Assembly (NCBI RefSeq): GCF_003334785.1
Contig: NZ_QOWV01000039.1
Length of the DNA stretch: 6,249 nt
Direction: 5' to 3' (one strand)
Origin: Escherichia coli
GTDB lineage: Bacteria; Pseudomonadota; Gammaproteobacteria; Enterobacterales; Enterobacteriaceae
Part shown: positions 50 through 6,249 of the stretch, one piece after another
Position numbering within the stretch: position 1 is the first letter of the stretch
How the letters are laid out: every line of letters begins with the position of its first letter
Position numbers and translations under genes: made by a program
Notes under the pieces: generated by a model
What the model was told of the DNA's origin: nothing
Databases searched by the model: none
The model's input: the letters and a program-made list of their open reading frames with translations, nothing else

Positions 50-379
50 TCACCAATAAATAAGCGTCAATACGGTGCTCCGTTGACGCTTACAGAGAAT
101 GCGTTTGACCGCCTCGCTATATACTTCCGAGCGTTCTCTTTTCCCAACAGAAATCACGAAAACGACAACTTTCTCGTCTATAACCTGGTATACAAGGCGA
201 TAGCCTGAAGACCGGAGCTTAATCTTGTAACAATCAGGCATACCACGGAGCTTGTTTGCTTCAATCCGGGGTGACTCAAGTACTTCAACCAGCTTCTTTT
301 TCAACTGTTCACGTACCGTCGAGCCCAGCTTTCGCCATTCCTTTAGTGCCCGCTCGTCAAAATCCAGAAAATACGCCAT
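50..379 (-). CDS. relE: RelE mRNA-interferase toxin (RelE/ParE family), 109 aa; first 95 aa match E. coli RelE as recalled, followed by a 14-aa C-terminal extension
   Basis: Translation MAYFLDFDERALKEWRKLGSTV...VYSEAVKRIL is recognisably RelE; start codon shares one base with the relB stop (TGATG); the gene sits directly downstream of relB on the same strand. Confidence 0.9.
   Translation of the reverse strand: MAYFLDFDERALKEWRKLGSTVREQLKKKLVEVLESPRIEANKLRGMPDCYKIKLRSSGYRLVYQVIDEKVVVFVISVGKRERSEVYSEAVKRILCKRQRSTVLTLIYW
53..91 (-). terminator. Stem-loop (9-bp stem 62-70/83-91, inner CGG/CCG pairs) followed on the minus strand by UAUUUAUU; probable terminator or mRNA fold at the relE 3' end
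   Basis: Inverted repeat AAGCGTCAA...TTGACGCTT read directly; U-rich tract follows on the minus strand. The extended relE ORF reads through it. Confidence 0.4.
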
Positions 380-618
380 CAGAGTTCATCCAGCGTCACA
401 CGTACTGGCTTAGGATTACGAAGCCGTTCTTTCACTATCTCCACAAGTTCAGCATCTTCATCACTCAGGAGTGTCTGTTTGAACGGCAAGCGTTCATTGT
501 CAGCGATATACTCGAGCATGAGACGAAGCGCTTCAGAAGGAGTTACACCCATTTTTTCAAGCGCGGCGTAAGAACGCGCTTTAAGTTCATCGTCAATACG
601 CAGGTTAATGCTACCCAT
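379..618 (-). CDS. relB: RelB antitoxin, 79 aa
   Basis: Translation MGSINLRIDDELKARSYA...PKPVRVTLDEL matches RelB as recalled; GAGGTG Shine-Dalgarno about 6 nt upstream of the ATG; overlaps the relE start. Confidence 0.92.
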   Translation of the reverse strand: MGSINLRIDDELKARSYAALEKMGVTPSEALRLMLEYIADNERLPFKQTLLSDEDAELVEIVKERLRNPKPVRVTLDEL

Positions 619-1150: not shown

Positions 1151-1483
1151 ATGTCTGTCACAATTCAGGGAAATACCTCAACCGTTATTTCAAACAACTC
1201 CGCCCCGGAAGGAACATCAGAAATAGCCAAAATCACAAGACAAATTCAGGTGCTGACTGAAAAGCTTGGGAAAATCTCATCGGAAGAGGGGATGACGACA
1301 CAGCAGAAAAAAGAAATGGCTGCATTGGTACAGAAGCAAATTGAAAGCCTCTGGGCTCAACTGGAGCAGTTGTTAAGGCAGCAGGCAGAGAAAAAGAATG
1401 AAGACGCGACAGTTCAGCCTGATAAAAAAGAAGAGAAAAAAGACGATACAAATACCGCTGGCACCATTGATATTTACGTCTAA
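1151..1483 (+). CDS. flxA: FlxA-like protein (FliA-regulated), 110 aa
   Basis: AAGGAG Shine-Dalgarno about 6 nt upstream of the ATG; translation MSVTIQGNTSTVISNNSAPEG... with a Q/E/K-rich coiled-coil-like centre; gene order relB-ydfV-flxA as in the Qin prophage. Confidence 0.85.
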   Translation: MSVTIQGNTSTVISNNSAPEGTSEIAKITRQIQVLTEKLGKISSEEGMTTQQKKEMAALVQKQIESLWAQLEQLLRQQAEKKNEDATVQPDKKEEKKDDTNTAGTIDIYV

Positions 1484-1570: not shown

Positions 1571-3419
1571 AGTTAACATTACAAGATATAAGTAATGGAC
1601 GCACTCCCAATTAGTCTATTTAAATCGCCACGAGTTTAACTGACAACCCATGATCAATTATGAATTGCAACTATTTCTGTAGTCACTTTTGTGGGGACAG
1701 TCCACAAAACTGCCAACTTCCGCTTCTTGCTCTTAGCGGACATTAGCATAGGCTATTTACCATAACGCCTCATTACGCGCACCGCCCAGACTGACTCAGC
1801 GCGTTTCTGGCATATCCCCGGTAAAACAAGTAACAAACCACCCGAAAATGAACACCAGAAACGCGACTTAAGAATCTACCCTATGAATGGATATGCACTC
1901 AACCGAATCGATCTTGGTTTCAATCTTTTTTATCGGGATCAGGCTTCTTTTTAGGTAACTTCGGGGGCTTAACTTGCTGATGACTTTGCGTTCGGCGCGT
2001 AAGCCAGGGATGGTCAGCTTTAGGTTTAACATAGTATTTTGAGCGTAAATCAATACGGGCATTATCCACTCGTTCATGGACACTCTTTTCATCATCCAGT
2101 GGTATAGGCTCCGGGCCATCAACATACTTTTCCCAGCCCAGCGCTTTCCCGTCATACAGAACGTTAATTTCACCGTCAAAGTTCTCGCATACAGTAACAA
2201 CCGAATGCCTAAGTCGATATCCCCGGCCCTCACTGCGTACCTGAAACGCACTGCTTTTGTACTGGAAAGTGAGATTTTTAGACAGAACGCGCTTCGCCTG
2301 TAGGCTGAAGATATAACCCAGTTCCTCTTCAGAATGGTGCACATCAAGATGAGCATTATCAGTAGTACGAGGCGACGTAGCGAACCGGTTGTTATAGGCT
2401 TCAATAAAGGTCGGCAACCATGCATTTGCTGTTTCAATATCACTGATATTCTGAAGCCGCATTTCTTTGACCAGCCTGTCCTGTAGTGTCTGATTGGCGC
2501 GCTCTACCCGCCCTTTTGCCTGCGGGCTGTTGGCATGGATTGGCTCGATGCCCAGTGTCTTTATCGCACGAGTGAACTGGGTCAGCTCACCTTCCCGCTC
2601 TGGGTTATTTACCCTGAATATACTGTGTCTATCAGAGTAGAGAGCGAGCGGTACGCCATGATCATTAAGGTAACCCCGGAGGGTTTCCATGTAAGCCCGG
2701 GTTGTTTCAGCAGGCACAAAACGCAACGCCATCAACGCACTGGTGGCATCATCAATGAAAACGATCAGTGTACATCTGGGGCCTCGATTTTCAAACCAGT
2801 CATGAGGTGAGCCATCAATCTGGATCAGTTCACCGTAAGATGGTCGTCGCATGCGGCGTTGATATATACGGGCAATTTTACGACGGCGTTCACGCCATAA
2901 CCCCTCTTCTATCATCCACTTTCTGAGAGTTTCAACGGATAAAGATAAACCGTGTATCTCGCGCAATTTTTCGCACGCAAACGTAGGTCCAAAATCAGCG
3001 TAACGGCCTTTGAGGAGTGAAATTACTGTTGCTCTGAATTCAGTAGAAAAGGAATTATTAGGACGCTTTCCACGTCGGTGGGAAACCAGACCAGAAGGCC
3101 CTTCATTTCTATACCGTTGCACCAGACGTTTAACCTGCCGAATAGAAATGCCAATGCGTGCCGCAGCTTGTTCCTGAATAATCTGAAGTCGGTGGAGTTC
3201 CTTATGACTCATCGTAACAGTCTCTTTGATCATGAAAAATCCCCCAGAGAATTGTCTGGGGACATTTTAGAATGGTTCAAAGGGGACATTACAGCTTGGT
3301 GTTAACAATAGCCTGCTTCTCCGTGCCTTTCGGCACGTAAGAGGCTAACCTACATGTGTCTAGCATGAAATTGGCCTCAGATTAATGTTAAGCGTCTTGC
3401 AGGACGCGTAATGTTAACT
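1571..3419 (-). mobile_element. ISNCY-family (IS1202-group-like) insertion sequence; boundaries tentative
   Basis: Boundaries are placed at a perfect 12-bp inverted repeat (AGTTAACATTAC at 1571-1582; GTAATGTTAACT at 3408-3419) bracketing the transposase gene. No target-site duplication was found and a 12-mer match could arise by chance in 6 kb. Confidence 0.35.
1920..3233 (-). CDS. ISNCY-family DDE transposase (IS481/IS1202-like), 437 aa
   Basis: N-terminal helix-turn-helix (AARIGISIRQVKRLVQRY); integrase-type catalytic core with D in IQIDGS, D in FIDDATS and E in SPQAKGRVERANQTL; lysine/proline-rich C-terminal tail. An alternative ATG at 3212 (MSHKEL...) is in frame. Confidence 0.9.
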   Translation of the reverse strand: MIKETVTMSHKELHRLQIIQEQAAARIGISIRQVKRLVQRYRNEGPSGLVSHRRGKRPNNSFSTEFRATVISLLKGRYADFGPTFACEKLREIHGLSLSVETLRKWMIEEGLWRERRRKIARIYQRRMRRPSYGELIQIDGSPHDWFENRGPRCTLIVFIDDATSALMALRFVPAETTRAYMETLRGYLNDHGVPLALYSDRHSIFRVNNPEREGELTQFTRAIKTLGIEPIHANSPQAKGRVERANQTLQDRLVKEMRLQNISDIETANAWLPTFIEAYNNRFATSPRTTDNAHLDVHHSEEELGYIFSLQAKRVLSKNLTFQYKSSAFQVRSEGRGYRLRHSVVTVCENFDGEINVLYDGKALGWEKYVDGPEPIPLDDEKSVHERVDNARIDLRSKYYVKPKADHPWLTRRTQSHQQVKPPKLPKKKPDPDKKD

Positions 3420-3567
3420 GGGGCTTTTCTCTATCTGCCGTTGGTGTCCATGCCCGAGGCAGATAGCCTCAAGCACCCGCAGTCATTCTACTTAACTAAG
3501 ATTTCCCCGCAAACCGTTTTTGTCCAGCACAGTAAATATCCAACTAAACCAATGGAGTTCGCTGTAT

Positions 3568-4289: not shown

Positions 4290-4477
4290 TCATCGCCCCA
4301 CTCATCACAATATGCTTCGACCGGAGTTTTTCCCGCTTCATAGTCATCACGCTAGGATTCGACATCAGCAGCACTTCCACCGCGTAACTCACCATAGTCC
4401 ATTAATAGTTCATCCCGCTCTTCAAAACTGATGTTATATTTAGCTGAACAAAAATCAGCCACTTTGTTCTTCCTCAT
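4286..4477 (-). pseudogene. Small acidic ORF (about 63 codons) interrupted by an in-frame amber codon at 4352-4354
   Basis: Reads MRKNKVADFCSAKYNISFEERDELLMDYGELRGGSAADVES-TAG-RDDYEAGKTPVEAYCDEWGDE; an internal GTG at codon 6 is preceded by GAGGAAG; stop overlaps the next start. Confidence 0.2.
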
Positions 4478-4899
4478 CGTCTTTTATTTCGTGGTATGAG
4501 TAATTGCAGTAGTTAAAGAAAATTTCTTATGCTCCGTCATGAATTTCCTCAGGTGTTGCGTCATCGTCCACTTCGAATACATCCTCAAAATCTCCACCAG
4601 CTATTCCCGTTTCAATAATAATTTTGAACTTTCGCATTTCACTACCGCCCTTTCGGGCGGCCTCCTGATGTTCTGAGGGTGCAGAAATCCATCCGGTTAA
4701 GGATTAAATTTTATTTACAGAACTGAATTTAATTATTCAGATATACGTATCTGTAGCCTTACGAATCTACTCACTGGATGCCTCTTTCATAAAAATAATC
4801 CAGTGGGTTTTATCGTTTTTTCCCTGTTCGTTGACAGATAACAGGTTTTCTGTCTGTCAGTGCCAGAATCTGGCTTACCGGTATTTGCGTTTCATTCCA

Positions 4900-5256
4900 T
4901 TAAAAAATCAGAACGCCGTGCGGCCTCAACACCCGAAAGGCTTCTTTAAATCTCTGTCGCGAATCATCACGCCAGGCATCTTTATTCAGCCGTCCATATT
5001 TCTTTCCCATCCAGGCGTTATCACCAACACTCTCAAGATGCGGAGGGTCTAATACAACCATCGAAAAAGATGCGTCTGCAAATGATAATGCACGAAAATC
5101 TGCGATAATGTCAGGGCTGATAATCAAGCGTCTCCCATTGCGTAATGTGTATCCTTCTTTTCTGATATCGCTGAATATCGCCCGTTCGTCAGACTTATCG
5201 AACCAGAACATGCGGCTGCCACAGCACATATCAAGAATGGTTGCCGGTGCACTCAC
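4900..5256 (-). CDS. Putative SAM-dependent methyltransferase (motif I ILDMCCGS; motif IV VVLDPPH), 118 aa; probably cut short by a premature TAA
   Basis: GTG start overlapping the stop of the upstream ORF; motif I and a DPPH motif about 55 residues apart, as in small N6-adenine/N4-cytosine-type methyltransferases; after the TAA at 4900-4902 the same frame stays open 29 codons (WNETQIPVSQILALTDRKPVICQRTGKKR). Confidence 0.6.
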   Translation of the reverse strand: MSAPATILDMCCGSRMFWFDKSDERAIFSDIRKEGYTLRNGRRLIISPDIIADFRALSFADASFSMVVLDPPHLESVGDNAWMGKKYGRLNKDAWRDDSRQRFKEAFRVLRPHGVLIF

Positions 5257-5519
5257 TGCGCCACGTCCTGAAAATTACCCTGATAGAAAGCCAGTATGCG
5301 CTGCATAACTTCGCTCTTCCGGCACTCGCGACAGATTATGTTTAGGCGACTGTCGTAGCGACGTATTTCTCCGTCAGGTGATGACCAGATAAGGTCCGGA
5401 TCAACCACAGCAGGTTTCTTCACCTTTGCCCTCGAGAGTTTTTTGCGGGCGTTTTGCCAGTCCTTACGCGCCTGTTCAGAGGGGAATAACCCGTATCCGG
5501 AGCTTAAGTTGCACGCCAT
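5253..5519 (-). CDS. Hypothetical basic protein, 88 aa (contains CRECRK), coupled to the methyltransferase gene
   Basis: Stop overlaps the methyltransferase GTG start (GTGA); no clear Shine-Dalgarno; its 5' end overlaps the longest version of the opposite-strand ORF. Confidence 0.3.
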   Translation of the reverse strand: MACNLSSGYGLFPSEQARKDWQNARKKLSRAKVKKPAVVDPDLIWSSPDGEIRRYDSRLNIICRECRKSEVMQRILAFYQGNFQDVAQ

Positions 5520-5892: not shown

Positions 5893-6249
5893 CGGACACT
5901 ACCATTTGTTCTTTTTTTAAGCAGCCATCTGATGATATTTTTCCCTGAAGGCTGCCGGGGAGATATTCCCCAGACGAGAGTGACGACGCTGACGATTGTA
6001 GAAAATCTCAATGTATTCCCGTATTACTGAGATGGCTTCATCCCGGTTATTAAAACGATAGTGGCTCAGGCTCTCATTTTTCAGCGTTCCCCAGAAGCTT
6101 TCCATCGGAGCGTTGTCGTAACAGTTACCTTTACGCGACATTGATGTTTTCAGACCAAACTGCTCCTGTATGACCCGGTAATCGTATGCGCAGTACTGTG
6201 AACCTCGATCGGAGTGGTGGATTAGCACGGCAGGTGGGCGCTGGCTCCT
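5874..6249 (-). mobile_element. IS3-family insertion sequence, partial (continues beyond window); terminus near 5874-5900
   Basis: Transposase OrfB C-terminus ends at 5917; the adjacent GGCAATAGCGGACAC (5885-5899) resembles the IS3 terminal repeat as recalled (GCAATAGTGGACAC). Exact terminal base uncertain by about 10 bp. Confidence 0.6.
5917..6249 (-). CDS. IS3-family transposase OrfB (integrase core), C-terminal part; 5' end lies outside the window
   Basis: Translation ...VLIHHSDRGSQYCAYDYR...MSRKGNCYDNAPMESFWGTLKNE...YNRQRRHSRLGNISPAAF carries the IS3-family DDE-region signatures (HSDRGSQY; KGNCYDNAPMESF); the frame stays open to the window edge. Confidence 0.9.
   Translation of the reverse strand, partial: RSQRPPAVLIHHSDRGSQYCAYDYRVIQEQFGLKTSMSRKGNCYDNAPMESFWGTLKNESLSHYRFNNRDEAISVIREYIEIFYNRQRRHSRLGNISPAAFREKYHQMAA

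Follow-up and report, generated by a model that had tools for sequence, protein, structure and literature searches.

A short segment on the minus strand of the window, the 6,249-nucleotide stretch of Escherichia coli DNA analysed here, is a copy of a conserved non-coding intercistronic linker of about 103 nt (positions 4638–4740). The linker was delimited by BLAST break points, and 139 listed copies with varied flanks from viral contigs form the basis of the copy counts given below. Among the early operons of lambdoid E. coli prophages (Qin/Rac/Stx type), it reappears between many different accessory genes. The explanation that we favor, with a probability of roughly 0.6, is a joint one: a linker at the junctions of mosaic prophages that carries a split ribosome-binding site (RBS), palindromes that are incidental, and a copy in the window that is a relic. 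In the proposed mechanism, neighbouring gene cassettes would be shuffled when phage Red/RecET-type or host enzymes recombine homologous copies of the linker; on the polycistronic early transcript a hairpin would fold and reduce the distance between the Shine-Dalgarno sequence (SD) and the AUG from 23 nt to an effective spacing of about 7 nt, and the folded unit would act as a split RBS like those of T4 genes 38 and 25. A literature search found no description of the linker sequence, of DUF7167 or of such a linker. The linker does not represent a new kind of system; it adds one more boundary sequence, and one more candidate split RBS, to two kinds already known.

A BLAST search with positions 4540–4790 as the query matched 2,693 of 5,426 complete E. 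coli genomes at 5,025 places, with at most nine per genome. The ends of the matches fall sharply at 4740, 4709, 4668 and 4637, the last being the A of an ATG start codon, and many matches span 4637–4740 alone, i.e., the spacer without either neighbour gene. A scan of viral contigs with a 16-mer from the middle of the spacer returned at least 120 stretches in at least 80 distinct contexts, and their flanking open reading frames (ORFs) comprise at least eight upstream gene ends and at least seven unrelated downstream genes in at least 42 pairings. Among the matches listed, one upstream end (TKSRTE followed by the stop) precedes seven different genes; DUF7167, in turn, is preceded by at least five different gene ends. 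Downstream genes assigned with PHROGs include DUF7167 (phrog_1997), Ea22-like genes (phrog_660 and others), a Q-like antiterminator (phrog_79), a 72-aa membrane protein (phrog_1832) and several ORFs without a function label. Four annotated contexts show the same exchange of partners: the linker lies between LygF/DUF977 and a 167-aa protein, between a hypothetical gene and a 155-aa protein in phage mEp460, between a methyltransferase and a 65-aa protein in O157:H7, and between DUF4406 and a 141-aa protein, with the next coding sequence starting 2 nt past the end of the BLAST match in all four. Thus, non-homologous genes stand on each side of an element that is placed at gene boundaries and overlaps stop and start signals, and these varied upstream and downstream partners mark the linker as a mosaic-junction "boundary sequence". 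From the gene-combination table and the internal break points, we infer that recombination takes place inside the linker.

The element appears to be confined to E. coli prophages. All DUF7167 homologues that were found are from E. coli, and a degenerate SD-hairpin pattern was located in two contigs only when representatives of 100,044 species were scanned. These two contigs (L202 and L203; 3.0 and 5.5 kb), labelled as Collinsella sp. metagenome-assembled genomes, are probably mis-binned E. coli prophage fragments. The linker is absent from the Rac prophage of K-12 MG1655. In one prophage (L007, 11040–11800), a QueH moron with its own upstream region is joined at the 3' edge of the hairpin; from our reading of the sequence, we take the inserted gene to be QueH-like (epoxyqueuosine reductase, DUF208-type).

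Judged from its ORF list and from two annotated relatives used for context, a chromosome labelled DH5alpha and phage PhiR42_1, the window is a portion of a decayed Qin-like lambdoid prophage. It contains relE/relB (50–618, minus strand), ydfV, which is listed between relE/relB and flxA, flxA itself (1151–1483, plus strand), an ISNCY-type (ISNCY/IS1202-like) transposase gene (1920–3233, minus strand) and a sok/hok remnant (3307–3478, minus strand; Rfam sok match of 104 bits). In a scan of the whole window against Rfam 15, this sok match is the sole hit above a family's gathering score, and nothing overlaps 4600–4800 at E ≤ 1. The locus is a second hok/sok, besides the hokD that lies beside relBE in related records, and its hok side is apparently cut off by the adjacent transposase gene. 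Gene order on one strand of the relatives is dicC(cro), ydaT-like, O-like, DUF977, methyltransferase, linker and DUF7167, and the linker there belongs to the rightward early operon, on the minus strand. In the window, the DUF977 gene (5253–5519), upstream of the methyltransferase, is shortened to 88 aa versus 140 aa in the dicA/dicC locus (L001), and an IS3-family transposase fragment (5917–6228) follows it, so that the operon is interrupted upstream of the linker too.

Both genes next to the linker are pseudogenes. On its downstream side, the DUF7167 gene (phrog_1997; 4455–4637, minus strand) is interrupted by an in-frame TAA at 4529–4527, for which PGAP notes an internal stop; intact homologues have 60 aa. 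On its upstream side, a class I SAM-dependent DNA methyltransferase pseudogene (4766–5256, minus strand), whose original stop is the TAG at 4768–4766, carries a nonsense TAA at 4902–4900 and a 1-nt insertion in a GGGAAAAAA run (4824–4816). PGAP labels this gene "frameshifted; internal stop" in L204 and extends it to the TAG; the repaired translation (162 aa) matches phrog_954 over residues 5–161, and in the ORF list of the window the gene appears as a 118-aa ORF that stops at 4900. The same decay is present in many E. coli records. Because the methyltransferase reading continues to the TAG, the true intergenic spacer is 4638–4765 and not 4638–4899: the annotated-ORF gap is not wholly intergenic, and its part at 4766–4899 is the decayed 3' part of the methyltransferase. 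The first 25 nt of the spacer on the minus strand, ATTCGTAAGGCTACAGATACGTATAT (4741–4765), are the tail of the methyltransferase module and occur only in copies that have the methyltransferase as the upstream gene (19 of the 139 listed copies). With pseudogenes on either side and IS elements breaking up the operon, the window copy of the linker is probably an inert relic.

Two further observations concern these flanks. An inverted repeat on the plus strand, ACTCACTGGAT / ATCCAGTGGGT (4769–4808; 11-nt arms and an 18-nt loop), is followed by GGTTTTATCGTTTTTT and lies inside the decayed methyltransferase; this terminator-like structure may be a coincidence or a terminator of antisense transcription. 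In addition, the database DUF7167 entries P0002, P0003 and P0006 have 87 aa instead of 60, which is likely an annotation artefact, with the ORF calls apparently extended upstream through the non-coding linker and the hairpin.

Read along the minus strand, the linker is organized in four modules. Module A is AT-rich, contains stops in all three frames and runs CTGAATAATTAAATTYAG...CTGTWAAWAAAA. It opens with the stop block CTGAATAATTAA (4729–4740), in which TGA, TAA and TAA occupy the three frames; TGAATAAnTAA is present in 127 of the 139 listed copies, and the flanking-ORF table shows several unrelated upstream genes terminating on the GAA-TAA of the stop block CTGAATAA. Module B, TTTAATCCTTAACCGGAGG, consists of TTTAATCCTTAACCGG and a first GGAGG-like, SD-like motif, which is mutated to GGATGG in the window. 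Module C is GATTTCTGCACCCTCAGAACA, and module D is TCAGGAGG with the hairpin and TA. The modules also occur apart: at a split-element locus, modules A and B stand directly before a 70-aa gene (phrog_4659), which uses the first GGAGG as its SD, and the stop of this gene is followed by TGTCGGGAGG, the hairpin and the TAAGAA-ATG of the next gene. Such a solitary SD-hairpin unit follows the 70-aa gene about 40 times among the matches listed, before at least four downstream genes. An intact junction of this type, in which the 70-aa gene, SD and hairpin precede DUF7167, is found in E. coli 2013C-3252 (L205, 1286–1714). In one linker subtype (L003, ~1560–1575, and related viral contigs), the GGGATTT of module C is replaced by a G homopolymer of about 7–9 G just upstream of the SD-hairpin; its length differs between copies, which could reflect slippage-prone variation or a sequencing artefact.

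Two coding interpretations of the linker were rejected. The window contains a 16-codon ORF (ATG-GAT...TAG) that might be read as a leader peptide or small ORF, yet it is not conserved because its ATG arises from a window-specific G-to-T change of the consensus GGAGGG. An N-terminal extension of DUF7167 across the linker is incompatible with the commonest variant, which has an in-frame TAA just before the ATG, and is also excluded by other downstream genes lying in different registers.

The 3' end of the linker forms a compact unit on the minus strand, in which the SD AGGAGG (4661–4666) directly abuts the hairpin CCGCCC-GAAA-GGGCGG (4645–4660), with a 6-bp stem and a GNRA tetraloop, and a 7-nt spacer, TAGTGAA (4638–4644), which lacks a separate SD and contains the stops TAG and TGA, leads to the ATG (4635–4637). 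The initial annotation had listed the hairpin, the AGGAGG before it, the ATG 7 nt on and the nested palindromes, and we find all of them at the positions it gave. Folding of the minus strand places the hairpin in both the minimum-free-energy (MFE) and the centroid structures of the region, with −12.4 kcal/mol for the 16-mer, and the fold z-score of the whole region on this strand is an unremarkable −1.3. Across 83 natural sequence contexts, the mean pairing probability of the hairpin is 0.98, and the mean unpaired probabilities of the SD and the AUG are 0.45 and 0.51, respectively. The SD core GGA is invariant among 43 distinct copies, and the fourth G is at least 90% conserved. Pairing of this upstream SD with the 16S 3' end is predicted at −9.2 kcal/mol on average, as against −0.4 kcal/mol for pairing of the spacer alone with the anti-SD.

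The spacing of this unit is held before different genes. From the end of the AGGAGG to the start codon there are 23 nt in the window and 22–27 nt in other copies, and the hairpin is separated from the start by 6, 7, 8, 9 or 11 nt throughout the 48 distinct SD-hairpin-tail combinations. The SD-hairpin unit stands 6–11 nt before the starts of at least seven unrelated genes, and an alternative SD in the spacer is found only in the Q-like gene family (GGAG, 11-nt spacer); a few copies have no ORF after the hairpin. The SD thus lies well outside normal spacing, for which 15 nt is the upper bound, and neither it nor the AUG is part of the stable stem in between. Folding would leave 6–11 nt, inside the functional range of about 5–11 nt, and only the Q-like gene has an alternative SD at normal spacing. 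Mechanistically, this layout is best read as a plausible candidate for a hairpin-bridged, or "split", RBS of the kind known from T4 genes 38 and 25. The initial annotation had suggested such a structure-dependent start, and the layout before at least seven unrelated genes strengthens this reading, whereas covariation in the stem does no better than shuffles. Across copies, 95.3% of the stem cells are paired, with one double-sided change (G-C to A-U), 11 wobble and 12 unpaired cells, and the covariation measures equal those of shuffles in a test that is without power because the copies are 96% identical. Alternative helices (GAGGG/CCCUC and the SD-masking CCUC/GAGG) are conserved in sequence and show no covariation.

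Other readings were considered and set aside. The hairpin is not an intrinsic terminator because neither strand has a U-run after it (minus strand, UAGUGAAAUG; plus strand, CCUCCUGAUG), and a terminator scan of the window and of a consensus copy made no call in the element. A 7-nt match to the GcvB seed (AACAUCA), seen by eye, was judged to be at chance level.

The conservation of the linker is uneven. Identity was measured among copies sharing DUF7167, with the retrieval anchor excluded and the window as the single reference: the 55 nt that separate the anchor from the ATG reach 0.937 and module A reaches 0.851, and in the adjacent gene identity is 0.970, 0.951 and 0.826 at codon positions 1, 2 and 3, respectively. 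The 3' half of the linker therefore resembles codon positions 1–2 and the AT-rich half resembles third codon positions. When copies of a single flank class are compared, the linker is at least as diverse as the genes beside it, and the higher conservation of its 3' half could stem from recent recombination rather than selection.

The window copy was also said to be dense in palindromes, and this is borne out: compared with 2,000 dinucleotide-preserving shuffles, the segment 4686–4755 contains 12 inverted repeats with 5-nt arms versus 3.75 ± 2.41 (P = 0.0035) and six with 6-nt arms versus 1.09 ± 1.34 (P = 0.0095). The excess in the window copy is real. Four palindrome patterns are read on the plus strand. 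AATCC (4686–4690) and GGATT (4701–4705), separated by an N10 loop in modules B and C, are present in 119 of the 139 listed copies and are lost in the short form of the element. The dyad CTGAAT (4723–4728)-TTAATT-ATTCAG (4735–4740) is perfect in the window; it is perfect in 24 of the 139 listed copies (17%) and has one mismatch in 102, the dominant form CTGAATAATTAAATTTAG being one with a mismatch. The remaining two are ATACGTAT (4743–4750) and TACAGA (4716–4721)/TCTGTA (4750–4755); ATACGTAT and the outer TACAG arm are carried by the 25-nt methyltransferase tail and belong to the methyltransferase-linked subtype only (19 of the 139 listed copies).

The initial annotation took these palindromes for repressor operators, i.e., sites at which a prophage repressor or another DNA-binding protein would act on a local promoter. 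Their density above chance and a plus-strand fold z-score of −2.9 point in that direction, yet the symmetry of the dyad is not conserved across homologous sites and the outer repeats are limited to one subtype. None of the four patterns recurs in the 12.8 kb of L001, which includes the dicA/dicC immunity region and contains each of them once, so that multiple sites are lacking there. A scan for sigma-70-like promoters in the window and in a consensus copy placed none in the element, and the AT-rich half that holds the dyad drifts at about the rate of third codon positions. We regard an operator function as very improbable. The palindromes are best explained as by-products of AT-rich composition, of the stop-codon block and of chance juxtaposition with the methyltransferase tail. 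The main point that escaped the initial annotation is that the segment is a widely repeated mosaic-junction linker.

Three other accounts of the SD-hairpin unit have to be weighed against the split RBS. The hairpin may be an intercistronic element of mRNA stability or processing, either a REP-type 3' barrier or a 5' protective stem; a stability element was the alternative offered in the initial annotation. It would set the relative levels of the cistrons while the adjacent SD is non-functional or serves as a standby site only. The high stability of the GC hairpin, its GNRA loop, its lack of a U-tract and its place between cistrons of a long operon would suit such a role, as would its retention where no ORF follows directly or where a moron brings its own signals. 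This account, however, leaves unexplained why starts lie 6–11 nt past the hairpin before unrelated genes, most of which have no other SD, and why the SD core is invariant. We consider it unlikely as the main explanation, and a role in stability or processing is in any case compatible with a role in ribosome binding. The opposite possibility is that the hairpin inhibits translation: the SD-like sequence in use would be the 3' arm, (A)GGGCGGU, which the 5' arm would mask, and the accessory genes would be kept weakly translated or dependent on a melting factor. Indeed, in a melted hairpin the 3' arm and spacer could pair with the 16S 3' end at −8.2 kcal/mol and at an ideal distance of 6–9 nt from the start, and among the 43 distinct copies conservation is higher in the 3' arm, the 5' arm being among the more variable columns. 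Nevertheless, opening the hairpin costs 10–12 kcal/mol, more than the pairing would gain, and a perfect AGGAGG, roughly half-accessible, lies immediately upstream; the asymmetry of the arms can be accounted for by C-to-U changes in the 5' arm that retain pairing as G-U. Masking of this kind is, in our estimate, improbable.

We are equally doubtful that the linker has no present function, i.e., that it is a neutral spacer spread by recent recombination in which the SD-hairpin is an inherited accident. Several findings fit neutrality: linker diversity within one flank class equals that of neighbouring coding DNA, the stem gives no covariation signal, the taxonomic range is narrow (DUF7167 all in E. 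coli; two hits among 100,044 species representatives), and the AT-rich half drifts as third codon positions do. Set against these are a 3' half conserved like codon positions 1–2, the invariant SD core, the start spacing held before unrelated genes, and the persistence of the element, in many different settings, in roughly half of the E. coli genomes.

Beyond the favored reading, a mosaic-junction linker with a split RBS, there is a bolder proposal, which we put forward tentatively and with less than even confidence: the linker may be a selected portable "cassette adaptor" that combines a stop for any upstream frame, a hairpin-bridged high-affinity RBS for any downstream ORF and a preferred site of homologous recombination. 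If so, accessory genes of E. coli lambdoid prophages could be swappable as plug-and-play cassettes, and the linker would be a functional analogue of integron attC-bounded cassettes, driven instead by Red/RecET-type recombination. Apart from this proposal, the linker offers a concrete and abundant example of the boundary sequences that have long been proposed to underlie lambdoid mosaicism and have rarely been identifiable. It also explains annotation artefacts, namely the 87-aa DUF7167 calls and a methyltransferase annotated as truncated, and it flags the stretch, in this window only, as non-regulatory relic DNA.

Comparison with known elements places the linker more precisely. REP/BIME elements are GC-rich extragenic palindromes without a U-tract that occur between cistrons in many copies per genome and can be barriers to mRNA decay. 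The linker hairpin is likewise GC-rich, devoid of a U-tract, repeated and intercistronic; however, it bears no obvious similarity to REP sequences by eye, its copies are confined to prophages and number at most nine per genome, and its distances to an SD and to a start codon are fixed. With the boxB of lambdoid nut sites it shares a short GC stem, a GNRA-like purine-rich loop and a place on an early phage transcript. In contrast to boxB, it is separated from the early promoters by kilobases, has an SD directly on one side and a start codon on the other, and is present, downstream of those promoters, in both pL-side and pR-side operons. No boxA-like sequence was seen by eye upstream of the hairpin in the region read, and a nut/boxB interpretation was rejected on this ground and on position.

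Short conserved boundary sequences at the junctions of lambdoid mosaics are described in PMC3029335, which cites Clark 2001 and Susskind & Botstein 1978. Like them, the linker is non-coding, conserved and placed where genes meet, with non-homologous genes as its neighbours, and it fits a scheme in which homologous recombination yields new gene combinations; phage Red is able to recombine short, diverged homologies between lambda and the Qin/Rac prophages (PMC3945230). Unlike them, the linker is long (~100 nt) and internally modular, and it carries translation signals of its own in the form of three-frame stops, SD and hairpin. In the split RBSs of T4 genes 38 and 25, a hairpin brings a spacing of 22 nt down to 5 nt and one of 27 nt down to 11 nt, and initiation falls when mutations destabilise it (PMC3014915; PMC7297116). 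The layout is the same: in both systems the SD stands at too great a distance from the AUG (22 and 27 nt in T4, 22–27 nt in the linker), a stable hairpin in between shortens the effective distance to 5 and 11 nt in T4 and would shorten it to about 6–11 nt in the linker, and the site is an intercistronic junction of a phage operon. The two have no sequence relationship; the linker hairpin is a minimal 6-bp GNRA stem that abuts the SD, and the T4 sites have mutational and probing support, whereas the linker is a candidate. If the hairpin-bridged RBS works as proposed, it would be a temperate-phage counterpart of the T4 gene 38/25 split RBS, differing from it in that the linker unit serves not one gene but is reused, as a portable unit, before many unrelated genes of temperate phages.
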